From: an uncultured Actinomycetes bacterium
GTDB lineage: Bacteria; Actinomycetota; Thermoleophilia; Gaiellales; Gaiellaceae
DNA: 64,000 nt
Direction: 5' to 3'
Assembly (NCBI GenBank): GCA_963793035.1
Contig: CAWBYI010000004.1
Span: 4,175 to 68,174 of the forward strand
Shown: positions 1-64,000 of the stretch, in pieces
Layout: each line of letters begins with the position of its first letter
How positions within the stretch are numbered: position 1 is the first letter of the stretch
Program-made: the position numbers and the translations under genes
The notes under the pieces: model-generated
What the model was told of the DNA's origin: nothing
The model's database searches: none
Seen by the model: only the letters and a program-made list of their open reading frames with translations

Positions 1-2187
1 GCCGGCCTCACGGCGCATCTCCGACCAACTGTGGCCGCCGGCGTAGATGTCCTCGAGTTCGAGGCCGGTGCTCGTCGAGGAATTCACCGAGTCCGACGTC
101 GCCGAGCGAGCGGAGTTCGTTGCACCGCTCGCGCCACGTGCTCGGGATCGCGTCGCGGATGCTGCGGAGCACGATGTCGCGCGCCACCTGATCAAGCTGG
201 AAGCTGCAGCCGGCGGGGAGGAACGGGAAGTCGTGTCGAACCTGGCGCTCGACGTCGGCGCGTGACCCGCCGAGCAGCGCGCGCAAGCGCCGGTCGAATC
301 GGAACTCCTTGCGGTGCGTGCCGACGAAGTCGAGGACGGTGCAGACGCGCCTTGCCCGTCGCCTTCCGGAGCCCGCGGCCGAGCTGCTGCAGGAACAGCG
401 TCGGACTCTCGGTCGGGCGAAGAAGCAGCAGCGTGTCGACGCTCGGCATGTCGATGCCCTCGTTGAACAGATCGACGGTGAAGACGCACGCGGACTTCCC
501 TTCCGCGAGATCGCGCAGCGCCGCCCTGCGCTCGTCCGACGGCTGGTCGCCGAGACAGCTACGGCGGCGAGTCCGAGTTCGCGTGAACCGCTGGGCCATG
601 AAGCGGGCGTGCTCGATGCTGACGCAGAAGCCGAGGGCTCGCATCCGCGACGGTCGGCGACGTTCCGCCGAGCTCCTCGACCACCAGGCGAACCCAAACG
701 TCGTCGGCGGTGAAGACGTTCGTCAGCGCGGCGACGTCGTAGCCCTGCCCGCGGCGCCACGGCACATCGCGCAGGTCGAGGCCGTCATGGATCGCCGAAG
801 TACGCGAATGGCGCCAGGTACTGCTGGTCGATGGCATCCCACAGCCGCAGCTCGGCGGCGATCCGGCCGTCGAAGTAGCGGAGGACGTCGAGCCCATCGG
901 CCCGCTCGGGCGTGGCGGTCAGGCCGAGCAGCTCGACCGGCTCGACGTGTTCGAGCAGCGCCTCGTACGACGGCGCTGCGGCGTGGTGGAACTCGTCGAC
1001 GATGACGACGTCGAAGTGGTCGGGTCGAGTCGCGCGAGGCCGGCGCGTTGAGGCTCTGGATCGACGCGAAAACGTGCTCGAACAGCTGCGGGCGGTGCCC
1101 GCCGACCCACAACTCGCCGAAGCTCGCATCGCGCAGCGCGTGCCGGAAGGTCGCACGGCTCTGCTCGAGGATCTCCTGGCGGTGAGCGACGAACAGCAGG
1201 CGGGCTCGGGCAGGTCGTGCCGCAGCCGCGCGTAGTCGACGGCCGCCATGACGGTCTTGCCCGTGCCGGTGGCGGCGACCAGCAGGTTCCGGTGGTGGCC
1301 CTGGTGCCGGGCGACGGCGATCTGTTCGAGCAGGCGCTCCTGGAACGGGCGTAGGTGGATCTCGGTCGGGCTGGCAGCTCGAGTCGATCGGCCGCGACGG
1401 CCTGCGCTGCGCGTCGCGAACTCGGCGGCGTCGTAGGGCGCGAAGTCGTCGCTCTCCCAGTAGGAGTCGAAGACCGCCGCCATCTTGGCGACGACGTCGG
1501 GATTGCGCAGGCCGGACACCCGGACGTTCCACTCGAGCCCGGTCACCTGCGCCGAGTGCGTGAGGTTCGACGAGCCGATGTACGCGGTCGAGTAGCCGCT
1601 CGTGGCGGTGGAACATCCACGCCTTCGCGTGCAGCCGCGTCGTCGTCGTGTCGTAGGAGACCTTGATCTCGCGCCGATGCCGCCGAGCTGCGTCGAGCGC
1701 CGCTGCCTCGGTGCTGTTCGTGTAGGTCGTCGTCAGGACACGCGAACGGGCTTGCCTCGCCTCGCAGTGGCGCCGGAGCGCGTCCATCAGCGGGCGGACG
1801 CCGCTCCAGCGGACGAACGCCATGACAATGTCGATGCGTCCGCCGACGGGATCTCGGCGATCGAGCTCGTGCTGGATCGTCGGGCTCGCCCGGAGCATTG
1901 GTCAACATCGTCGTGTCGAGCAACGGGGTGAGCGGGCGCTCGATCGATTGTGGCCGTCCGTCCGGGAGAGGCTGCAGCAGCGAAACCAACACGCGTCCAG
2001 GGTCAACGGGTTCGTCGCCCCACAGATCGCCTCTTCCATCCGTGAGGGACCGGAGGCGATGTATCAACGCCGTGGCGATACGCACAGCCTCGCCGCTTCG
2101 CTTTCCTTCCGGCGCTCGCTCGATCGCTCGTGCGAGCATGCCTGCGAGGTGGCGTGATACCCGATCTGATGCTTCGGCGTCACGCAA
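1..2187 (-). pseudogene. PLD-nuclease / SF2 helicase / DUF3427-type protein. The frame is broken about 8-10 times and the 3' end runs off the left edge.
   Basis: Consecutive pieces lie in different minus frames. They include the HKD motif 'TTTRLHAKAWMF', 'GLEWNVRVS', Walker A 'LLVAATGTGKT', DExH 'FDVVIVDEFHH', 'LGLTATPER', helicase-C 'FTVDLFNEGIDMPSVDTLLLLRPTES', and DUF3427-like 'FRFDRRLRALLGG..FPFLPAGCSF'. Nt 1-60 read 'ELEDIYAGGHSWSEMRREAG' in yet another frame. Confidence 0.7.
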
Positions 2188-2410
2188 CTCGGCGACCTCG
2201 GCAAGAAGCGTCCCTTCGGGGATCCCGCGAGCAATTCCTGAAGCCTGCGCGTCAGCAGCGCTTCATGCAGTCCGGGTTTCAGAGAGTCGCTGCTGATGCT
2301 TCCGAGTTTCTCAGGCTCGGCATTTCCCGCCAAGCCGAGAAGGGGTTGCGCTCGGATCGCCGGCTCGGAAGGATCGCCCGCCCGAGCGGGCGGCGATAGT
2401 CGCATCGCGG

Positions 2411-4867
2411 TTACACGAGGGCGAGCTCGACCGCGTCCTCGAACGCCAGCGCGTGGCCCTCGGCCCAGACGGCTTCGGCCTCTGCGCCCAGGGCCTCGCG
2501 TGCACTGCCGATGTAGCGCTCGAGGAGCTCGTCCCAGAACGGGACCGAGATCGACACGCCCAGCGACTCCCACAGCGCCGCCGCAGACGCGGCCAGGCGA
2601 AGGGCGTTGTACGGGTCGGTGCCGGCGGCCGCCATCGCCACGCCCTGGACCTCGAAGCTCGTCTCGATGACGTCTCCGAGCGGCAGCGCCGCTCGGAGGC
2701 TCTCGCGGTAGCGTCTCCCGGCTTCCTCGGTATCGCCGCGTATCAGCGCGCAGTCGGCGAGGAAATGGAAGGCGAAGTGCACGGTGCGCGGGTCGCCGTC
2801 AGCCATCTCGAGCAACTCGTGTGAGAGCGACTCCGCCCGCTCGACGTCGCCCATGGCAACGAGCACCTGGCAGACGCCGACGAGCGCGCGGGTCTCACCC
2901 GGGTGGTCGCCGAGCTCTCGGCGAAGCGCGAGGCTCTGCTCGAACGCGGCGAGCGAGCCCGGGTTGTCCGCCGCGTGGTACATGAGCGTCCATCCGCGCT
3001 CGTCGAGCGCCGAGGCGAGCTCGGCCCGATCGCCCAACTCGTGCCAGAGCCCGATCCCGTCGCTGAGCCAGGCTTGCCCCCCGTCGACGTCGCCGTGCCG
3101 TGCGGTGAGCGATCCCAGCGCCGTGAGGGCGCGGGCCCGCGCTCGTCCCGTTGCCGACGAGTCGGCGAGCGCGCGATCCAGACGTCCGGAGCCCTCGGAG
3201 AGCAGCCCATGGGAGAGCCAGAACCAGCCGAGAGCGCCGGCGAGCTCGAGCGCACCGTCCGCATCGCTAGCGGTCAGCCAGTCGAGCGCAGCCCGAAAGT
3301 CGTCGTGGTCGAGCTCGAGTCGCCCGGCCCACTCCGCCTCGGCATCGAACCTCCGCTCGTACGCCTGCTCGGCGAGAGTGGAGAAGAAGTCAGCGTGCCG
3401 CTGCCGTAGCTCCTCTGCCTCTTCTGTTGCCGCGAGCCTCTCGAGCGCGTACTCGCGGATCGTCTCGAGCATCAGGAAGCGGTCGTCGCCGATCGGCTTC
3501 ACGAGGCTCGAGTCGACGAGCGCCGCGACGCCGTCGAGGTCGGCGCCCGAGACCTCCTCCGCAGCAGAGAGCGGGAAGCTGCCCGCGAAGACCGAGAGCC
3601 GCGCGAACAGCTCCTTGCTCCCGGAATCGAGCAGGTCGTAGCTCCACTCGATCGTGGCGCGCAGCGTGCGCTGGCGCTCGGGGGCGTCGCGCGCACCGCC
3701 CGTCAGCAGCGGAAGCGTCGAGTCGAGACGCTCGAGGAGCGGCTCGGGAGCGAGAAGCTTCGTGCGGGCGGCGGCGAGCTCGACCGCCAGGGGGAGGCCG
3801 TCGAGGCGGCGGCAGATCGCCTCGACGGTGGCGTCCGGCGCGAGCTCTCGCCCGATCGACCGGGCCCGTTCGACGAAGAGCGCGGCCGCATCGCTCGCCG
3901 GAAGCGGCTCCAGCCGGTACTCCCGCTCGGCCGACACATGCAGGGGCGACCGGCTCGTGACGAGCACACGCAGACCGCCCGAGGACGCGAGGACGGTGCT
4001 GACCGCCGGAGCAGCGTCGAGGAGGTGCTCGAAGTTGTCGAGCAGGATGAGCAGCTCCTTCCCGCGGAGGAAGCCGGCGAGGTCGTCGCGCGCCCCGATC
4101 GCCTGTGCGACCTCCGAGGACAGGAGGTCGGGGTCGGAGAGGCTCGCGAGCGGCACCCAGAAGACGCCGTCGCGCAGCGTGCCGACGAGCTCCGCCGCGA
4201 CCTGAAGCGCGAGGCGGGTCTTCCCGGTGCCTCCGGGCCCGGTGACGGTCAGGAGGCGCGTGCCGTTCGAAAGCGCGGCGACCAGCTCACCGAGCTCGTG
4301 CTCTCTCCCCACGAGAGGACTCGCGGCGACGGGCAGGTTCGTGGCGTCGAGCGTCTTGAGCGGCGGGAAGTCGCCAACGCCGAGCTGGTACAAGCGCTCG
4401 GCTCCGATCAGATCCTTCAGCCGGTGCTCGCCGAGATCGCGCACGCCGGTGTCGCTGTCGAGGAGCCCGCGAGTCGTCTCCGAGACGACGATCTGCCCAC
4501 CGTGGGCGGCCGCGGCGATCCGCGCAGCGCGATGCACATCGATCCCGACGTAGCCCTCGTCCGTGACGATCGGCTCGCCGGTGTGGATTCCCATGCGTAC
4601 CCGGATCAGGCCCGGCTCGAGCGCCTGCCGCGCCTCGGCGGCCGCCGCGACCGCGTCGGCCGCCCGGGAGAACGCGACGAAAAAGGCGTCGCCCTGGGTG
4701 TCGACCTCGACGCCGCCGTATCTCGAGAAGGCGTCCCTCAGCGCGCGCCGGTGCTCGTCGAGGAGATCCGCGTATCCCGCCCCGTGCTCCTGGAGAAGCC
4801 GAGTCGACCCCTCGACGTCCGTGAAGAGGAAGGTGACGGTGCCGGTCGGCAGCTCGGGCCGGCGCAT
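2411..4867 (-). CDS. Class III adenylate/guanylate cyclase fused to a STAND/AAA ATPase and TPR repeats
   Basis: An 818-aa uninterrupted ORF. The N-terminus 'GTVTFLFTDVEGSTRLLQEHG...VDTQGDAFFVAFS' is a cyclase catalytic domain. A P-loop 'VTGPGGTGKTRLA' follows, then long helical TPR-like repeats. Confidence 0.85.
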   Translation of the reverse strand: MRRPELPTGTVTFLFTDVEGSTRLLQEHGAGYADLLDEHRRALRDAFSRYGGVEVDTQGDAFFVAFSRAADAVAAAAEARQALEPGLIRVRMGIHTGEPIVTDEGYVGIDVHRAARIAAAAHGGQIVVSETTRGLLDSDTGVRDLGEHRLKDLIGAERLYQLGVGDFPPLKTLDATNLPVAASPLVGREHELGELVAALSNGTRLLTVTGPGGTGKTRLALQVAAELVGTLRDGVFWVPLASLSDPDLLSSEVAQAIGARDDLAGFLRGKELLILLDNFEHLLDAAPAVSTVLASSGGLRVLVTSRSPLHVSAEREYRLEPLPASDAAALFVERARSIGRELAPDATVEAICRRLDGLPLAVELAAARTKLLAPEPLLERLDSTLPLLTGGARDAPERQRTLRATIEWSYDLLDSGSKELFARLSVFAGSFPLSAAEEVSGADLDGVAALVDSSLVKPIGDDRFLMLETIREYALERLAATEEAEELRQRHADFFSTLAEQAYERRFDAEAEWAGRLELDHDDFRAALDWLTASDADGALELAGALGWFWLSHGLLSEGSGRLDRALADSSATGRARARALTALGSLTARHGDVDGGQAWLSDGIGLWHELGDRAELASALDERGWTLMYHAADNPGSLAAFEQSLALRRELGDHPGETRALVGVCQVLVAMGDVERAESLSHELLEMADGDPRTVHFAFHFLADCALIRGDTEEAGRRYRESLRAALPLGDVIETSFEVQGVAMAAAGTDPYNALRLAASAAALWESLGVSISVPFWDELLERYIGSAREALGAEAEAVWAEGHALAFEDAVELALV

Positions 4868-4939
4868 GGCGCGATCATCTCACCACGCCGCTCGAAGGCG
4901 TTACGCCTGTCGAATATGTGGGAGAAGTGACCGGGGAGG

Positions 4940-53086: not shown

Positions 53087-54357
53087 GTGCTCCGCCGATC
53101 CGTGAATCCCGTGCTCCTCGTCCTCGCCGCCGCAGCGGTGCTCGCAACCGCATCCTCGAGTGCCGGTGCGGCACGCCAACAGTCCGCCGCCTGCCCGCTT
53201 CGCGTGCAGGCCGTCTTCTGGACCTCGACCGACTGGGAGCTGCTCGGCGAGGAGCTGAAGGGCCAGCTCTCCCCGTGCGCCGACTACTACATCTCGATCC
53301 CGCCGCTCGCGAACGACAAGACCGCGCTGCGGGCGCAGCAGGACGACGTGATCAGGCAGCTCGGCCCTCGCTTCCACCCCGTGGCCGAGGTCACGCTCGC
53401 CGGAGAGACCGGCTGGGACGCGTGGGTCACCGGCGCGCCGGGCCGGACCTGGCTCGACGCAGGCGTCGAGTTCCGCAGGCGAATGGTCGCCGCCGGATAT
53501 CGACCCGACCTCGGCGAGACCTGGCTCCTGAACGAGCTCGAGCGCAGCACGCGGCGGGACGAGCCGCCGCACACGCGCGCCGCGATGTCCGACCTCCTCC
53601 GCGGGCTCCATCTCGGCAACGGAAGCGGGCCGCGCATGCCCGGCATCGTCGAGATCGGGATCGCGTACACGCACCAGAACATCCCGGACGTTCCGGGCTA
53701 CAAGACGGAGATGAAGTCGTGGCTCCAGGATTCGGCGTTCTGGAGCAGTGTCGCGCCGGCGATCTCCGTCCTGACGAAGGAGGTCTACCCCGACGCACGC
53801 CACTGGGGCGTCGCCGGGACGGCGCGCAACCAGCGCGCGCGGCGCCTCAACCAGTACATGCAGCACTCGATGAATCTCGTCTCTGCCGGCCCGGGATCGG
53901 TCGACGCCGCCCGCGCACTGTTCAGGCGCGCGTACATGCCGCTCGGGAGCGCGACCTGGCCGGCTCGCGGGCCCGATCCGTTCACGCCTCCCTTCTGCTG
54001 CGGCCACGGCTGGACCCTGATGCCGCACGAGGCGATGCTGAACTTCGTCTCCGAGCAGATCTACGCGACCCGCCGCTACGTCGGAAACCACAGGGGCGGC
54101 GCGCCTGCCGGACGGATCGGCTTCTCCTGGCAGCCGACGAACAACTTCGACCTGCCCCAGGCGGAGTGGGACACCGCGAAGCGGGCGCATCGCCGCGCGC
54201 ATCGGCGAGGCAATCCGCTTACGGGTACCGCCCAGGGCTCGCGTCGGCCAATCTCGCGTGCCGGCCGCCAGGCGGCGCGACGGACTGGTGCCTCGGCGCG
54301 AATATCCAGGACGCCGCGTTCACGACCGAATGGGAGCCGTTCGCGCGCTGGAACTGA
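53087..54357 (+). pseudogene. Secreted hypothetical protein of unrecognised family, with 1-2 frameshifts near 54185-54225
   Basis: Signal peptide 'MLRRSVNPVLLVLAAAAVLATASSSAGA' and ~365 aa of coding-like sequence. The C-terminus is best read as '...EWDTAKRA/IAARIGEAIR/SAYGYRPGLASANLACRPPGGATDWCLGANIQDAAFTTEWEPFARWN*' across three frames. Confidence 0.55.
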
Positions 54358-54375
54358 GGCGTATCGTGCATCGCC

Positions 54376-55650
54376 GTGAAGGACGACGCGAGGACGGGTG
54401 AGCTCTCGCGCCGAGACCTCGTCGCGCGCGCCGGGGTCGCCGCCGCCGCGGTCGCGCTCGGACAGCCACTCGTCGCCGAGGCAGCGCCCGACCTGCGCCG
54501 CTGGAGCGGCGTGCGCGCGCAGTTCGCGCTCGATCCGCGGCGCATCCACCTGGCGTCCTTCCTGCTCGCCGCCCATCCACGCCCCGTGCGAGACGCGATC
54601 GAGCGTCATCGTCGGGGACTCGATCGAGACGCGGTCTCGTACCTCCATGGGAACGAGGGCCGGCTCACCGCCGCCGCGCGCTCCGCGGCAGGTCGGTACC
54701 TCGGCGTGCCTGCGAACGAGGTCGCGCTCACGGACTCGACGACGATGGGCCTCGGCCTGCTCTACGCACGGCTCGCGCTGAAGCCGGACGAGGAGGTCGT
54801 GACGACCGAGCACGACTTCTACGCGACGCACGAGGCGCTGCGCCTGTCCGGCGCGACGGTGCGGCGCGTCCGTCTGTACGACGACCCGCGCCGTGCCTCG
54901 GTCGACGAGATCGTGACGCGACTGCGCCGCGGGATCTCGGGTCGGACTCGCGTCGTGGCGTTGACCTGGGTGCACTCGAGCACCGGCGTGAAGCTTCCGA
55001 TCCGGGCGATCGCGGACGCGCTGCCCGATCGCGTGCTCCTCTGCGTCGACGGCGTGCACGGGTTCGGCAGCCAGGCGGCGTCCGCGCGCGAGCTGCGCTG
55101 CGATGCGTTCGCGTCCGGGTGTCACAAATGGCTCTACGGCCCCCGCGGTACGGGCGTCCTGTGGGCGAACGAGCGCGTGCGCGAGCTCGTCCGGCCGACG
55201 ATCCCGTCCTTCGACGACGGTGCGAGCTACGGCGCCTGGCTGTCGGGGACGACCCCGTCCGGGATCCCCGACGGCGCACGCCTGACGCCCGGCGGCTTCC
55301 ACTCCTTCGAGCACCGCTGGGCGCTCGCCGAGGCGTTCCGCTTCCACGACGCAATCGGGCGCAGGCGGGTCGAGGCGCGGGTGCGCGCGCTCGCCGCCAG
55401 GCTGCAGGCGGGGCTCTCGGAGATCCGCGGCGTCCGCCTCCGAACGCCGTCGTCGGGCGCGGTGTCGGCGGGCCTCGTCTGCTTCGAGGTCGCAGGGCTC
55501 GACCCCGACGCAGTCGTGCAGCGGCTGGCCGCGCGCCGGATCGTCGCGAGCGTCACGCCCTACGCCGAGCGGTACGTGCGGCTCGGCCCGGGCATCGTCA
55601 ACACGCCGGCCGAGGTGGACGCCGCCGTTCGCGCCGTCGCCGCGCTCTGA
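54376..55650 (+). CDS. Tat-signal aminotransferase class V (isopenicillin-N-epimerase-like PLP enzyme)
   Basis: 'SRRDLVARAGVAAAAVALG' is a twin-arginine-like signal. 'ALTWVHSSTGVKLP' and 'ASGCHKWLYGPRGTG' (PLP Lys) follow. Confidence 0.8.
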   Translation: MKDDARTGELSRRDLVARAGVAAAAVALGQPLVAEAAPDLRRWSGVRAQFALDPRRIHLASFLLAAHPRPVRDAIERHRRGLDRDAVSYLHGNEGRLTAAARSAAGRYLGVPANEVALTDSTTMGLGLLYARLALKPDEEVVTTEHDFYATHEALRLSGATVRRVRLYDDPRRASVDEIVTRLRRGISGRTRVVALTWVHSSTGVKLPIRAIADALPDRVLLCVDGVHGFGSQAASARELRCDAFASGCHKWLYGPRGTGVLWANERVRELVRPTIPSFDDGASYGAWLSGTTPSGIPDGARLTPGGFHSFEHRWALAEAFRFHDAIGRRRVEARVRALAARLQAGLSEIRGVRLRTPSSGAVSAGLVCFEVAGLDPDAVVQRLAARRIVASVTPYAERYVRLGPGIVNTPAEVDAAVRAVAAL

Positions 55651-55663
55651 GCCGCCTCAGCTG

Positions 55664-56152
55664 TCAGCCGCTCGCGGGCGGGGGCACCAGGCGGGAAACG
55701 AAGCAGCAGTCCCCGCTGACGCCGTCCACCAGGAAGATCGCGTCGACGCGGGCGCCCTCCGGCCAGTCGCCGAGCCGCGCGAGGGCCGCGCCCGTCTGTC
55801 CGCGCCACGCGACGATCCAGGCAGGGACGTCCTTCTCCACTGGCACCTCGATCTCCCCGGACGGCGGCACGGCGAGCGGCCCCCGCGAGAACCGGCCGCC
55901 GACGAGCGCGGGCATGACGACCGGGTCCTCCTCGGGAGCGTCGTCGAGGAAGAGCGCCCGCCGGACCGCGCGAAGTGCGAACTCGCCTGTGACCGGGAGC
56001 TCCGAGGCAGCCGCCGGGCGGACCGTGAGCCCGCCCAGGTCGGAGCGGATCCAGGCCGGCACGGACGCGGCGGCTGAATCGCGATCCCGTGCAGCGAGCA
56101 CGACGGCGACGACGAGAAGCGCGACGGAGCACGCGATCGCCGCGGCTCGCAC
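55664..56152 (-). CDS. Membrane-anchored hypothetical protein (162 aa)
   Basis: This is the C-terminal portion of the 971-aa track ORF. GTG 56152 is followed by the TM helix 'AAAIACSVALLVVAVVLAA' and a coding-like domain. It lies 8 nt downstream of the valS stop. Confidence 0.5.
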   Translation of the reverse strand: MRAAAIACSVALLVVAVVLAARDRDSAAASVPAWIRSDLGGLTVRPAAASELPVTGEFALRAVRRALFLDDAPEEDPVVMPALVGGRFSRGPLAVPPSGEIEVPVEKDVPAWIVAWRGQTGAALARLGDWPEGARVDAIFLVDGVSGDCCFVSRLVPPPASG

Positions 56153-56160
56153 GCGCCGCG

Positions 56161-58579
56161 CTACCCCTCGAGAGCGGCGAGCTCGCGGCGGTAGCGCTCG
56201 AGCTTCTCCCGCTCCGCAGCGACGACGTGGTCCGGCGCGTTCTGCACGAAGCGCTCGTTCGCGAGCATTTCCTCCGCGCGGGCGACCTCGCCGCGCAGGC
56301 GCGCGATCTCGGCATCGCGGTTGCCGTCGACCCGCTGGCGCTCGGGCCGCACGACCGCGGCGAAGATGCGGCGCTCGTCCTCCGACCCCAGCTCGACCTG
56401 GACGCCGCTCCTCCGGAAAATCTGGGCCGCCTCCTGCACGCGCTCGAGTGCGCCCGCATCGTCCGCGAACCGTGAGTCGGGCTCCGGCCACGGCGAGACG
56501 ATGAGGCGCGCGCTGCGGTCCGGCAGCTGCGTCCAGATCTCCTCGGTCACGTGCGGCATCACCGGGTGCAGGAGCGCCAGCAGCCGCTCGAGCGCGGCGA
56601 GCGCGGTTGCCGAGGCCTCGTCGTCCTCGGCATAGAGCCGCGGCTTGATCGCCTCCGCGTACCAGTCGCAGAAGTCGTCGTATGTGAGGTGGTAAAGCGC
56701 GTCGACGACCGCGGCGAAGTCGTAACCCGGCGAGGCCTTCCTCGACGTCGGCTCGCACGCGCTCGATACGCGCGAGGATCCAGCGCTCCTCGAGATCGCG
56801 CGGGCTCGCCGCCGGCGACAGGCCCTTTGCGTTCTGGATGATCAGCCGCGAGACGTTCCAGAGCTTGTTCGCGAGCCGGCGGCCCTCCTCGATCGCCTTG
56901 ACCGCGAGCCGCGCGTCCTGCTGCGAGGACATCTTCATCAGCCCGTAGCGGGTCGCGTCGGTGCCGTGCTCCCCGATGAGGTCGAGCGGGTCGACTCCGG
57001 TGCCGAGCGACTTCGACATCCTCCGCCCGTCGTGTGCCAGCACCGTCGAATGGATGATCACGTCGCGGAAGGGAATGTCCCCGACGAGCTCGAGGCCCGA
57101 GAAGATCATCCGGTTCTCCCAGAGACGAATGATCTCGCGTGCCGTGATGTTGAAGTCGCCGGGGTAGAAGCGCCGCAGATCGGGCGTGTCGTCCGGCCAC
57201 CCGAGCGTCGCGAACGGCCAGAGTGCAGACGAGAACCACGTGTCCAGGACGTCCGGGTCGCGCTCGAGCTCGGTCGAGCCGCATTCCGCGCACGTCTCGG
57301 GCTCGGACTCCGCGACCGTGATGTGGCCGTTCGGGCAGTACCAGACGGGCAACTGGTGCCCCCACCAGATCTGGCGCGAGATGTTCCAGTCGGGCGCGTT
57401 CTCGAGCGAGTCGATCGCGAACCGGTGCTGCGACTCGGGGTGATACCGGACGCGGCCCGAGCGGAGGGCCTCGAGCGCCGGCTCCTTGAGCTCTTCCATT
57501 CGGCACCACCACTGAAGGGAGATCAGCGGCTCGATACGGCTCGCACAGCGCTCACACACCGCGACGGTGTGCCTGTACGGCTCACGCTTCTCGAGCAGTC
57601 CACGCTCCTCGCACCACGCGAGGACGCGAGCGCCGGCCTCCTCCTGCGTCATGCCCGCGACCTCGGGAACGACGTCGTTCATGCGCCCGTCGCCGCCGAT
57701 CACCATCGGCTCGGGGAGGCCGTGGCCACGTCCGATCTCGAAGTCCACCGGATCGTGGCCCGGGGTGACCTTGAGCGCACCCGTGCCGAACTCCGGCTCC
57801 ACGCGCTCGTCGGCGATGATCGGGACCCGTCGCTCGACGAAGGGCACGATCGCCTCCTTGCCGACGAGGTCGCGGTAGCGCTGGTCGTCCGGGTGCACGG
57901 CAACCGCGACGTCCGCGAGGATCGTCGCCGGCCGCACGGTCGCAATCGTGACGTGCCCGCTGCCGTCGGCGAGCGGGTACCGGATGAAGAAGAGCTCGTC
58001 GTCGGTTTCGACGTGGTCGAGCTCGAGATCGGAGAGCGCGCTCTCGTGGAACGGGCACCAGTTCACGATGCGGTTGTCCCTGTAGAGATAGCCCTTGTTC
58101 CAGAGATGGACGAAGAACCGGAGCACCGCCCGCACGTAGTCGTCGTCCATCGTGAACCGCTCGCGGCGATAGTCCATCGACGCGCCCATGCGCCGGAACT
58201 GGCTCATGATCGTGCCGCCGTAGAGACGCAGCCACTCCCAGACGCGCTCCTCGAACGCCGCCCGGCCGAGCTCGTGACGCGACAGCCCGTTCCGTTCGAG
58301 CTCCTTCTCCACGACGCTCTGCGCCGAGATGCCCGCGTGGTCGTATCCGGGCTGGAAGAGCACGTTGTACCCCTGCATTCGACGCCAGCGGACGAGCGCG
58401 TCCGCCAGCGCGAGCTGGAGCGCGTGCCCCATGTGCAGCTCGCCAGTGACGTTCGGGGGCGGGAAGGCAACGACGAAGGTGTCGCGCGGATCGTCCGCGT
58501 CCGCCGCGTACAGGCCTTCGTCCTCCCACGTCTTCTGCCAGCGCTCCTCGACGCCTTCCGGGCGGTACAGGGTCTCCAT
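56161..58579 (-). pseudogene. valS: Valine--tRNA ligase, one frameshift at the C3/G3 run near 56726-56730
   Basis: 'PPPNVTGELHMGH' (HIGH) and 'RMSKSLGT' (KMSKS) are present. After '...RADVEEGLA' the sequence continues in the 56161-56562 frame as 'GYDFAAVVDALYHLTYDDFCDWYAEAIKPRLY...HPVMPHVTEEIW...' through the C-terminal coiled coil. Confidence 0.9.
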
Positions 58580-58710
58580 CGGCGAGGAGTCTACGGCGGC
58601 TCTACGGGGCGTTCCGGTGTCGCCTAGCGCGCGTCCGTGAGCAGCCCGGATACCGGGAACCCAGGTACGAAAGACGAACGGCCCTTGGCGTCGCGGAACA
58701 CGTGCTCAGG

Positions 58711-60974: not shown

Positions 60975-63032
60975 GTGCCGACCTGCCCGAACTGCGGCCA
61001 GGGGAATCCGGAAGGCGCCCGGTTCTGCAACGCCTGCGGCTCCGCGCTCGCGGACGCGGGACGTCCCGGCGAGGAGCGCCGGCTCGTATCGGTGCTCTTC
61101 GTCGACCTCGTGGGGTTCACGCCGCAGGCGGAGAAGCTCGACCCGGAGGACGTGCGAGCGATCCTCACGCCGTACTACGAGCGGGTGCGCGCCGAGCTCG
61201 AGGGCTACGGAGGCGTGGTCGAGAAATTCGTCGGCGACGCCGTGCTCGGGCTCTTCGGGGCGCCGACGGCCTACGGCGACGACGCAGAGCGGGCCGTTCG
61301 CGCCGGCTTCGGAATCCGGGACTGGGCGGAGCAGGAGGGTCTCCAGATCCGCGTCGCCGTGAACACGGGCGAGGCGATCGTCGAGCTGAACGCGCGGCCC
61401 GAGCTCGGCCAGGCGATGGTCGCCGGAGACGTCGTCAACACCGCCGCGCGACTCCAGTCCGCGGCTCCGGTCGGCTCGGTGCTCGTCGGCGAGGAGACGT
61501 ACGTCAGCACCCGGAACGTCATCGAGTACCGCCCCGCCCAGCCCGTGCTCGCAAAGGGGAAGAGCGCGCCGGTGAGCGCGTGGGTCGCACTGCGCCCGAC
61601 TTCGGCCGTCGGCGAGCGCCCGACGACGCCCGTGCCGATGATCGGCCGCGAGCGCGAGATCTGCGTCCTCACCGAGACATGGGAGCGCGTCGCGGGCGAG
61701 GGCCGTACGCACTTCGTGACGGTGTTCGGCCCGGCCGGGATCGGGAAGTCCCGCCTCGGCCTCGAGCTGGCCGAGCTCGTCGCGGACAAGGGCGGTCGGG
61801 TGGTTCGCGGACGCTCGACGCCCTACGGGGCGAGCGAGCCGTACAGCGCCTTCGCCCAGCAGATCAAGCAGGTTGCCGGCATCTTCGACAGCGACGAACC
61901 GGCCGCCGCGCGTGATCGGCTCGACGCCGGAATCGCGGAGCTCTCCGGCCCGGCCGCGGCGGAGGAGCACGCGCCGCAACTCGCGGTCCTGCTCGGGCTC
62001 GCGGGTGCGAGCGAGTCGGTCGACCGCGAGTCGCTCTTCTTCTCGGCGCGCGTCTTCGTGGAGTCGCTGGCGCTGAGCGGGCCGACACTGCTCCTGTACG
62101 AGGACATCCACTGGGCCGACGAGAGCCTGCTCGACCTGCTCGAGATGCTGGCGGCGCGGGTCCGCGAGGTTCCCGTGCTCTTCGTCGCGCTCGCACGGCC
62201 GGAGCTCCTCACCGACCGTCCGGGCTGGGGCGGCGGCCTCCCCGCGTACACGGCCCTCCCGCTCGAGCCGCTCACCGGCGCGTCGAGCCGGGAGCTCGCG
62301 GAGGAGCTCCTGGCCGAGGCGGGTCACACGACGGACGGAGCGCACGCGGTCGCCGAGACCGCGGACGGCAACCCGCTGTTCATCGAGGAGCTCGCGGCGG
62401 CGATCGCCGAGCGCTCGACCGCGGGCGAGCTGCCGACGAGCATCCGCGCGATCATCGCCGCGCGGCTCGACTCGCTCCCCGCCGCCGAGCGCAGCGTGCT
62501 CGTCGACGCGGCGGTCGTCGGCCGGGTCTTCTGGCGCGGCGCGCTCGCGCGTATCGCCGAGCGGGACGACATGAGCAGGCTGCTCGGGTCACTCGAGGAA
62601 CGAGACCTGATCCGGCGCGAGGCGGTGTCGCGCATCCGCGGCGACCAGCAATTCGGGTTCAAGCACGGGCTGATCCAGGACGTCGCCTACCAGTCGCTGC
62701 CGCGCGCCGCGCGCCGCGAGCGTCACGCGGCCGTCGCCGAGTACCTCGAGTCGACGACCGATGTCGGCCAGTCGCACGAGGCGCTCGGCCAGCACTGGCT
62801 CGAGGCCGGCGAGGCGAGCCGTGCCGTGGACCACCTCGTCGCCGCCGCCGACCAGGCGGCGCGGGGCTGGGCGAAAGAGCGCGCGCTCAAGCTGTTCGGC
62901 GAGGCGCTCGCGCACGTCGACGACAGCGACGCCCGCTACCGGCAGATCCGGATGCGCCAGGCGGTCACGGCGCAGGCGCTGTACCACTCGCGCGACGCGG
63001 CGCAGCTGCGCGGCGCCGAGCCCGGTGCCTAG
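60975..63032 (+). CDS. Zinc-ribbon + class III adenylate/guanylate cyclase + STAND/AAA ATPase protein
   Basis: 'CPNCGQGNPEGARFCNACG', 'VSVLFVDLVGFT...KFVGDAVLGLFG', P-loop 'VFGPAGIGKSRL', and helical C-terminal repeats. It is a paralog in architecture of 2411-4867. Confidence 0.85.
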   Translation: MPTCPNCGQGNPEGARFCNACGSALADAGRPGEERRLVSVLFVDLVGFTPQAEKLDPEDVRAILTPYYERVRAELEGYGGVVEKFVGDAVLGLFGAPTAYGDDAERAVRAGFGIRDWAEQEGLQIRVAVNTGEAIVELNARPELGQAMVAGDVVNTAARLQSAAPVGSVLVGEETYVSTRNVIEYRPAQPVLAKGKSAPVSAWVALRPTSAVGERPTTPVPMIGREREICVLTETWERVAGEGRTHFVTVFGPAGIGKSRLGLELAELVADKGGRVVRGRSTPYGASEPYSAFAQQIKQVAGIFDSDEPAAARDRLDAGIAELSGPAAAEEHAPQLAVLLGLAGASESVDRESLFFSARVFVESLALSGPTLLLYEDIHWADESLLDLLEMLAARVREVPVLFVALARPELLTDRPGWGGGLPAYTALPLEPLTGASSRELAEELLAEAGHTTDGAHAVAETADGNPLFIEELAAAIAERSTAGELPTSIRAIIAARLDSLPAAERSVLVDAAVVGRVFWRGALARIAERDDMSRLLGSLEERDLIRREAVSRIRGDQQFGFKHGLIQDVAYQSLPRAARRERHAAVAEYLESTTDVGQSHEALGQHWLEAGEASRAVDHLVAAADQAARGWAKERALKLFGEALAHVDDSDARYRQIRMRQAVTAQALYHSRDAAQLRGAEPGA

Positions 63033-63044
63033 TCGCTCGAGCGC

Positions 63045-63344
63045 CTAGGCCGGCGGAGGCTCGGTCAGCGGGAAGTCGTCGGGCGTCACGTCGCCGGCGA
63101 TCTCCCAGATCTGCTCGATGAAGTGGTCGCCGAACTGCCTGCCGTGCTCGCGGACCATCTCCTCGGAGGGAGCGACGTAGACGCAGTACGACTTCGGCGT
63201 GCCGTCCTCGGCGAGGACGACATGGCTGTGCTCCCACACGATCTCGGGGAAGCGGTAATGGCCGATGGACTTCGAGCGCGTCGCGACCGTCGGCAGCGTG
63301 TCGATGTCGACGGTGTACGTGCGCTCTACGAGGTACCGCGGCAC
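63045..63344 (-). CDS. DUF4242 family protein
   Basis: 'PRYLVERTY...VWEHSHVVLAEDGTPKSYCVYVAPSEEMVREH'. GTG start 63344. Confidence 0.7.
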   Translation of the reverse strand: MPRYLVERTYTVDIDTLPTVATRSKSIGHYRFPEIVWEHSHVVLAEDGTPKSYCVYVAPSEEMVREHGRQFGDHFIEQIWEIAGDVTPDDFPLTEPPPA

Positions 63345-63496
63345 GCGGCGATCCTCACAGATCGAGGGGCGCGAGTCCAGGCCGGCTCTTCGCCGAGCTG
63401 CTCGGGGGAAGCGCGCAGGAAGCCGCGCGTCGAACGCTTGGAAGTTGCTTGTGCGCGTCGTAACATTCTTCGGAGCGGTCGGAGGCCTTGCCGTCG

Positions 63497-63883
63497 ATGT
63501 CCGAGCACGCCACCATGTCACTCCGCGTCGGCCTTCCCGACGACGCCGACGCTGCCGAGCTCGATGAAGCTACGGCGCGTCTGCGACGCGATCTGCTCGA
63601 GCTCGACGTGGACAAGGTCGAGCGGGCGACGGGTGCGGAGGCGCCGCCCGGAACGAAGGCCGTCGAGACGATCCTCATCGGGACGCTGCTCGTCACGCTC
63701 GCAAAGAACGCCGGAGCGATCGGCGACGTCGTCAAGGCGGTGCAGGGCTGGCTCGGCGATCGGCCGGGCCGCACGGTCAGGCTCGAACTGGACGGCGATG
63801 TGATCGAGCTGTCGAACGTGTCCTCGGCAGAGCAGAAGCAGTTGCTGGACGTCTGGATCGAGCGGCACTCGAAGCGCGCGTGA
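63497..63883 (+). CDS. EACC1-like small protein (effector-associated constant component)
   Basis: 'MSLRVGLPDDADAAELDEATARLRRDLLELDV...PPGTKAVETILIGTLLVTLAKNAGAIGDVVKAVQGWLGDRPGRTVRLELDGDVIELSNVSSAEQKQLLDVWI' matches the pattern I recall for EACC1. That pattern is an acidic N-terminus, P.G.K, a hydrophobic segment, W, then 'V.L..dG..i.L'. Start is 63497 or 63515. Confidence 0.5.
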   Translation: MSEHATMSLRVGLPDDADAAELDEATARLRRDLLELDVDKVERATGAEAPPGTKAVETILIGTLLVTLAKNAGAIGDVVKAVQGWLGDRPGRTVRLELDGDVIELSNVSSAEQKQLLDVWIERHSKRA

Positions 63884-64000
63884 GCGACGGTGCCCGCAGA
63901 GCGCTCGTCGTCTCCTGCGACAGGTACGAGGACTCGAAGCTGCGCACGCTTCCGGCAACGAGCGCCGACGCAGACGCGATGGCACGCGCTCTCGGCAACC
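63880..64000 (+). CDS. Caspase-like (peptidase C14) protein, 5' fragment only (runs off the right edge)
   Basis: The GTG overlaps the EACC1-like stop (GTGA). 'VSDGARRALVVSCDRYEDSKLRTLPATSADADAMARALGN' matches the typical start of bacterial caspase/orthocaspase domains (ALliG...Y.d..l..L......Da..la..L). Confidence 0.5.
   Translation, partial: MSDGARRALVVSCDRYEDSKLRTLPATSADADAMARALGN

Follow-up and report, generated by a model that had tools for sequence, protein, structure and literature searches.

Pairs of an EACC1 gene and a caspase gene were described in 2020 by Kaur et al. (PMC7159879). The arrangement termed 'System 4', which is prevalent in actinobacteria, consists of a 5′ EACC1 gene followed by a 3′ gene for a caspase, whose C-terminal domain is one of about 50 alternatives. 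Transmembrane (TM) helices are present in at least 33 % of these caspase proteins. The authors tie EACC1 systems to a multicellular habit (650 of 671 organisms), and report fusions of STAND NTPases to EACC1-associated caspases as well as systems in which a cNMP cyclase takes the place of the caspase. EACC1 was proposed to be the sensor and the C-terminal domain of the caspase protein to be the effector.

One member, from Ktedonobacter racemifer, has since been studied experimentally (Evans et al. 2025, bioRxiv 10.1101/2025.11.14.688446). The KrAvs12 caspase was found to cut KrEACC1, with a putative site at Asp49; toxicity was confined to the C-terminal KrEACC1 fragment (7.2 kDa), and cleaved EACC1 permeabilised liposomes. 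Domains fused to the caspase serve as sensors. The tested member responds to a phage protein, and a role in stress response was suggested for versions fused to DnaK. By analogy with this member, Kaur et al. probably assigned the two roles the wrong way round. The initial annotation of the locus examined here described such modules as essentially uncharacterised experimentally, which is outdated, and took the caspase to be the effector, whereas the Evans et al. study indicates that EACC1 is probably the death effector and the caspase its activator.

The DNA analysed here (the window) is a stretch of 64 000 nt from an uncultured member of the Gaiellaceae. It ends in what is likely a complete two-gene EACC1-caspase module, corresponding to System 4 of Kaur et al. 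2020, in which the caspase would release a pore-forming part of EACC1. Our confidence in the identity of the module is high; in the mechanism, extrapolated from one distant homologue, it is moderate. The features of the locus are listed in Table 1.

Table 1. Features of the EACC1-caspase locus (nucleotide positions in the window, or residues of the caspase protein)
Feature	Position	Strand	Details
Cyclase-STAND ATPase gene	60975–63032	+	685 aa; zinc ribbon, Guanylate_cyc and AAA_16 domains
PF14026 (SCO4226-like) gene	63045–63359	-	Found by domain scan
Ribosome-binding site	63481–63485	+	GGAGG, 11 nt 5′ of the EACC1 ATG; seen directly in the sequence
EACC1 gene	63497–63883	+	ATG start, 128 aa; predicted latent pore-forming effector
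Disordered loop with predicted caspase cleavage site	63644–63667	+	EACC1 codons 50–57, PPGTKAVE; motif P-x-G-[TSA]-[KR]-x-x-[DE]
Hydrophobic segment with many Gly and other small residues	63668–63760	+	EACC1 codons 58–88, TILIGTLLVTLAKNAGAIGDVVKAVQGWL; conserved 'TM helix' of Kaur et al.
GTGA overlap	63880–63883	+	EACC1 TGA stop (63881–63883) and caspase GTG start (63880); translational coupling; seen directly in the sequence
First 40 codons of the caspase-HEAT-8TM gene	63880–64000	+	GTG start; 40 codons plus 1 nt (121 nt), open to the end of the window
Caspase domain, cytoplasmic (predicted)	residues 1–246		Catalytic His83/Cys133
HEAT-like helical linker	residues 258–318		Weak HEAT_2 match, E=0.005
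Disordered flexible tether	residues 321–340		AF2 model
Eight-helix membrane domain	residues 347–613		AF2 model and hydropathy

The EACC1 protein

The EACC1-like reading frame of 128 codons that had been noticed near the right end of the window very probably encodes a member of the family. The ATG at 63497 was preferred over a TTG at 63488 as the start codon, as homologues begin at the same residue ('MSE...'). The protein scored 20.9 bits (E=3.6e-4) against Pfam PF19953, slightly below the gathering score of 23.6, with positions 9–99 of the 107 in the model covered, and EACC1 was its sole Pfam match. Orthologues that are 84 % (P0004) and 81 % (P0005) identical to it scored above the gathering score, at 24.6 and 25.1 bits, respectively, and 11 of the 18 members of the family matched the model at E<=0.01. 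On these profile scores the 128-aa protein is very probably an EACC1 family member. Its exact sequence was also matched in two short Logan contigs.

The AF2 model of the protein (pLDDT 75.8) has a β-α-β unit, a disordered loop and a β-α-β-β-α unit. The layout is typical of EACC1: a small protein with a central hydrophobic stretch of Gly and small residues and alpha and beta elements on either side. The hydropathy maximum lies at residues 58–76, and G62, L64, V66 and W85 are invariant in the alignment of homologues. In the AF2 model the hydrophobic segment belongs to a soluble fold and does not form a TM helix, and a Foldseek search of the model against the PDB returned only weak, generic ferredoxin-like matches, such as ribosomal protein S6 (TM ~0.4, E>1e-3). 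The segment is predicted to form the start of the toxic C-terminal fragment.

The caspase

The initial annotation had read the 40 codons at the edge of the window as the N-terminus of a caspase, and profile searches bore this out. The fragment matched NF047832, the NCBIfam model named 'caspase, EACC1-associated type', with E=2e-4 and the Peptidase_C14 model of Pfam with E=0.02, and it is identical to the N-terminal 40 residues of P0023, a 431-aa product of the same contig. The open reading frame thus runs on well past the edge of the window, and intact orthologues of 625–628 aa are found in the same position in four sister contigs (L001–L004). Against NF047832, P0023 scored 171.3 bits and the L001 orthologue 170.7 bits (cutoff 140), and residues 1–247 of P0023 scored 62.7 bits against Peptidase_C14. 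A Pfam scan of the full-length 628-aa protein missed Peptidase_C14, presumably because of filters or the bias of the TM region.

The catalytic dyad, His83/Cys133, lies beyond the end of the window, in P0023. H83 (within SCHG) and C132 and C133 (within DCC) are invariant among 38 caspase homologues, and C133 aligned with the catalytic C152 of KrAvs12. A sequence search of the PDB with the caspase domain found nothing at E<=0.01. When the AF2 model was used with Foldseek, the best match was the MALT1 paracaspase and caspase-7 was also found, with E values down to 3e-8 and target TM-scores of ~0.7. Judged by sequence and modelled fold, the downstream gene encodes a caspase (C14) with a His/Cys dyad, and its activity is predicted. 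With the metacaspases and MALT1 (clan CD, family C14) it shares the fold, the dyad and an Asp (D131) that precedes the catalytic Cys by two residues, and it differs from them in being bacterial, membrane-tethered and paired with a gene for a small protein that is presumably its dedicated substrate.

The AF2 model of the caspase protein (pLDDT 80) and hydropathy both gave eight TM helices. In the predicted topology, the Arg-rich loops (475–487 and 552–555) and the C-terminus would lie inside, as would the caspase, which fits the positive-inside rule. No NTPase domain was found in the 628-aa protein, either in domain scans or in the AF2 model.

Extent of the module

The stop codon of the EACC1 gene and the start codon of the caspase gene overlap, as had been seen when the locus was first annotated. 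To place this arrangement in context, 80 genome loci were retrieved with the caspase alignment out of more than 566 genomes with relatives, mostly Actinomycetota. The closest match in GTDB, from an Actinomycetota MAG, is only 45 % identical. In about 65 of the 80, an EACC1 open reading frame directly precedes the caspase gene in the same orientation, and the C-terminal regions of the caspase proteins vary across them. The same 4-bp overlap is the commonest arrangement, present at 23 of 67 related loci, and EACC1 and caspase share one open reading frame at 10 more, making 33 of 67 together. The pairing of the two genes is not due to chance. The 10 loci with a single uninterrupted frame (L022, L025, L034, L047, L061, L070, L072, L073, L081 and L084) are from Actinoplanes, Micromonospora, Plantactinospora and Lentzea; there, the substrate and its protease seem to be parts of one polypeptide.

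The cyclase-STAND ATPase gene upstream of the pair and the reverse-strand gene next to it, called a DUF4242 gene in the initial annotation, are both present as described. PF14026, the family matched by the latter, was formerly called DUF4242. In the sister contigs L001–L004, clpX, clpP and tig are found 3′ of the caspase gene, on the opposite strand. Among these contigs the cyclase-STAND/SCO4226-like block (window positions 60975–63359) is shared by L001 and L002. Both of its genes are absent at the orthologous loci in L003 and L004, where ggt directly adjoins EACC1 across a gap of 176 bp and the EACC1 proteins are 84 and 81 % identical to that of the window, respectively. Next to the conserved module there is hence a variable insertion site, where the block between ggt and EACC1 is present in some sister contigs and absent from others. 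The pair itself holds a fixed slot between ggt and clpX-clpP-tig in the four sister genomes, with EACC1 identity of 81–99 %, and is bounded upstream by ggt, or the variable insert, and downstream by clpX on the opposite strand.

Of the 80 unrelated loci, only four have a homologue of the cyclase-STAND gene no more than 6 kb away, in each case in the opposite orientation, and it is absent at the other 76. The locus had been described as a fragment of a STAND/effector system. From this comparison of loci the unit is instead a self-contained pair of EACC1 and caspase genes, and the STAND ATPase is a variable neighbour and bystander.

A promoter and terminator scan of the locus gave nothing above shuffled expectation. 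PADLOC, which holds no EACC1 model, did not recognise the pair; its generic 'caspase' match was weak (E=4e-4), and it returned weak PycC matches for the upstream cyclase, which arise from the cyclase fold alone.

A putative cleavage site in EACC1

In the AF2 model of EACC1, pLDDT falls below 50 solely at residues 50–57. This loop carries a motif that is found across the family. Among 77 aligned proteins, P50 is present in 73, G52 in 70 and an acidic residue (D/E) at position 57 in 59, while every one of the 74 proteins with a residue at position 54 has R or K there. In the alignment with KrEACC1, R46 corresponds to K54 of the window protein and the putative cleavage site, Asp49, to E57. Because the family-wide motif lies in the sole disordered loop and aligns with R46 and D49 of KrEACC1, cleavage is predicted within residues 50–57, after K54 or E57. 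E57 would be the counterpart of the published putative P1 site.

A candidate site at the invariant LELD37|V motif was rejected. The motif is inside a helix-strand junction that is modelled with confidence (pLDDT ~85), and the Kr site is not aligned with it.

An Asp two residues before the catalytic Cys is a feature of the Arg/Lys-specific metacaspases and MALT1. Together with the invariant basic residue at position 54, the presence of D131 in the caspase would fit a specificity for Arg or Lys at P1. The true scissile bond may, from these sequence features, follow the basic residue at position 54, which is a poor fit with the published putative Asp P1 of KrEACC1.

Comparison with described systems

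The locus resembles System 4 of Kaur et al. 2020 in having a standalone 5′ EACC1 gene, a 3′ gene for a protein with an N-terminal caspase and a variable C-terminus, TM helices on the caspase protein and no separate NTPase, and in its actinobacterial-type distribution. It differs in that the available part of the Kaur et al. 2020 text does not include the eight-helix (8-TM) domain, the HEAT-like linker or the sharing of the membrane domain with CHAT and TIR proteins reported below.

The K. racemifer system is a distant relative. KrEACC1 scored 28.2 bits against PF19953, which is above the threshold, and the EACC1 protein of the window is assigned to the same family on a score slightly below it. 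Both caspases match NF047832 and contain the DCC motif (C152 equivalent to C133). In both systems the EACC1 gene is upstream of the caspase gene and a [KR]-x-x-[DE] motif occurs right before the hydrophobic segment. Residues 50–109 of KrEACC1 were aligned by hhalign with the C-terminal half of the EACC1 family of the window (E=7.6e-4, probability 25 %, 23 % identity to the protein of the window), whereas the N-terminal halves could not be aligned by this method. The KrAvs12 caspase scored 84 bits on NF047832, below the cutoff of 140, compared with 171 bits here. The two also differ in the part fused to the caspase, which is an Avs-type STAND ATPase sensor in KrAvs12 and the 8-TM membrane domain, a presumed sensor, in the system examined here.

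In outline the proposed mechanism is like that of bacterial gasdermins with their proteases and of the mammalian caspase-gasdermin pathway, where a protease strips off an inhibitory part and a small protein oligomerises into pores. There is no relationship in sequence or fold, EACC1 is far smaller and its toxic part is C-terminal.

The eight-helix membrane domain

No Pfam model matches the 8-TM domain. Residues 336–627 of P0021, an orthologue of the product of the downstream gene, were used as a query for HMMER against 1.84 billion representative sequences. The domain is rare, with 78 proteins found at E<=1e-3. Besides the orthologue and fragments, the full-length matches (within P0141–P0217) have three types of N-terminal domain. 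One is CHAT, identified by Pfam at E ~1e-27 in P0141, P0143, P0146 and P0166. Another is TIR_2, identified by Pfam in P0155, P0157 and P0174 and by phmmer in about 19 proteins, and the third is an unnamed domain of ~150 aa. A profile search with the 8-TM alignment added further TIR_2 fusions, among at least 15 proteins scored. The 8-TM HMM also spans end to end the C-termini of EACC1-linked caspases from Nocardioides, Microlunatus and an Actinomycetota MAG (L005–L010, L012 and L015–L017).

Several motifs are common to the proteins in the alignment, namely GLLxGFG..KY, PFNGG, W..DP, LWxRYxGxP and GGxxGLAG. Of these, PFNGG, W..DP and LWxRYxGxP, together with a PWD..GRSW stretch in loop 1, are on the outer face in the predicted topology.

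As TIR and CHAT are output domains, the most economical explanation is that the 8-TM domain has a shared role in sensing or anchoring. From its distribution it may be a shared membrane sensor; it could also be a mere anchor. A more specific proposal is that it is a dedicated sensor of the envelope or membrane that is interchangeable across outputs, with the EACC1-caspase pair (pore), the CHAT protease and TIR as alternatives. We put this forward tentatively, as possible but somewhat short of probable. If it is true, these proteins would form a family of suicide switches that sense the membrane and detect their trigger on its outer face and not in the cytoplasm.

No EACC1 gene was found beside the TIR-8TM or CHAT-8TM genes at the two loci inspected (L085 and L086). 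The neighbours of the CHAT-8TM gene in L086 (positions 469–4934) are an alpha/beta-hydrolase gene, a gene for a 125-aa protein with one TM helix and a convergent gene for an MBL-fold-like protein (THVDSDHVGG). Alpha/beta-hydrolases and MBL proteins are two of the protease-activated effector classes in Evans et al. 2025 (bioRxiv 10.1101/2025.11.14.688446); their presence next to this CHAT-8TM gene may be a coincidence.

An apparent frameshift in the caspase gene

In the contig that includes the window, the reading frame of the caspase gene shifts after codon ~331, shortly ahead of the part for the membrane domain, and the gene was called as 431 aa. The last 100 residues of P0023 correspond to another frame of the intact L001 gene with 94 % identity, which indicates an indel of 1 nt. 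The window and L001 are 97.7 % identical at the nucleotide level over the last 10 kb, with 71 indels in this 10 kb. Many of the indels fall inside housekeeping genes such as that for ValRS, and the broken genes differ between sister contigs. An assembly error is, on this pattern of indels, more likely than a genuine pseudogene. The assembly seems to be rich in single-base indel errors, and hence the frameshifted genes of the window are not readable as pseudogenes without read support.

In the part of the window from 54000 to 58600, the ValRS open reading frame (55664–58579, reverse strand) turns into Arg/Ala/Pro-rich nonsense about midway.

Discussion

We propose that EACC1 would be a soluble, autoinhibited pro-toxin of 128 aa. 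The 8-TM domain would perceive a signal in or at the membrane, for example when phages attack the envelope or the membrane is under stress, and the signal would activate the caspase, probably through association of its protomers. Next, the caspase would cut EACC1 in the exposed loop, after K54 or E57, and the freed C-terminal fragment (residues 55/58–128, ~7.7–8 kDa) would oligomerise into membrane pores, with the result that the cell is killed or arrested. The cleavage, the toxicity of the C-terminal fragment and the permeabilisation of membranes are carried over by analogy from the distant K. racemifer homologue. Family membership, the dyad, the architecture of the caspase protein, the gene coupling, the loop motif and the absence of a conserved STAND partner come from the present analysis. 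A sensor role for the 8-TM domain is supported by its fusion to CHAT and TIR elsewhere and by the conserved motifs on its predicted outer face. Some observations go against the module and mechanism proposed here. The EACC1 protein of the window scores slightly below the Pfam gathering score, its similarity to the one characterised EACC1 is weak and limited to the C-terminal half, and PADLOC does not recognise the pair. The surroundings of the locus are housekeeping genes, and it is syntenic in the sister genomes, unlike a typical mobile defence island. The frameshift after codon ~331, if real, would delete the membrane domain.

The closeness of the cyclase-AAA_16 gene, 465 bp upstream on the same strand and also present in the nearest sister contigs L001 and L002, raises the question of whether the pair supplies the effectors of a larger STAND system, dependent on NTP, in which this ATPase senses the invader and controls the caspase, perhaps through a cyclic nucleotide. 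The STAND-caspase fusions and the occasional replacement of the caspase by a cNMP cyclase noted by Kaur et al. (PMC7159879) are in keeping with this, as are the weak PADLOC matches of the cyclase domain to PycC. However, the STAND versions known so far have the NTPase and the caspase in one protein and not separately encoded, an oppositely oriented gene separates the cyclase-STAND gene from the pair, L003 and L004 lack both the cyclase-STAND and the SCO4226-like genes, and a homologue within 6 kb is present at only four of the 80 unrelated loci, each time in the opposite orientation. We consider such a system very improbable. The model put forward by Kaur et al. (PMC7159879) makes EACC1 a single-pass membrane sensor that causes the caspase to cleave itself and free its C-terminal domain, which here would be a multi-TM pore or membrane disruptor, and the disordered linker at 321–340 between the HEAT and TM parts could be the site of self-cleavage. 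It is distinctly unlikely, given that the KrEACC1 experiments (10.1101/2025.11.14.688446) identify EACC1 as the substrate and toxic component, that AF2 models the hydrophobic segment of EACC1 within a soluble fold and that the 8-TM domain is also joined to TIR, a typical effector, so that a role as sensor or anchor fits it better.

Two further possibilities concern the state and the purpose of the module rather than its parts. The 431-aa length of P0023 and the displaced frame of its last 100 residues would be explained if the module were a decaying remnant in this genome, leaving a protease without its membrane domain and a system that is inactive or deregulated. With intact genes of 625–628 aa in four sister contigs, and with a density of indels and a scatter of broken genes that are the pattern expected of assembly error, decay is quite improbable. 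It is rather unlikely, if less so, that the same biochemistry serves a purpose other than phage defence, as a chromosomal, vertically inherited switch for cell death in envelope stress or development. The fixed position of the pair in the four sister genomes, the level of EACC1 identity among them, the multicellular habit of organisms with EACC1 systems (Kaur et al., PMC7159879) and the stress-response roles suggested for DnaK-fused versions (Evans et al., 10.1101/2025.11.14.688446) all point in this direction. On the other side, the sole tested member responds to a phage protein (10.1101/2025.11.14.688446), the TIR and CHAT partners of the 8-TM module are typical immune domains, and the adjoining site varies in whether it carries the cyclase-STAND insertion.

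The locus is one more uncultured actinobacterial example of a family that was described in 2020, that has its own NCBIfam model and for which a mechanism has been available since 2025. Its value is mostly corrective: the two-gene module is complete, the small protein is likely to be the killer and the caspase the trigger, and the STAND ATPase has no part in it. What deserves most attention is the 8-TM domain, as a shared module, and a trigger at the level of the membrane. Experimental work so far has dealt with a cytoplasmic STAND sensor, yet a large share of EACC1-associated caspases are membrane proteins. The 8-TM domain, which is found in cultured Nocardioides species, Nocardioides luteus BAFB (L010) among them, and in TIR and CHAT proteins, offers a tractable route to what a membrane-embedded immune sensor of bacteria detects.
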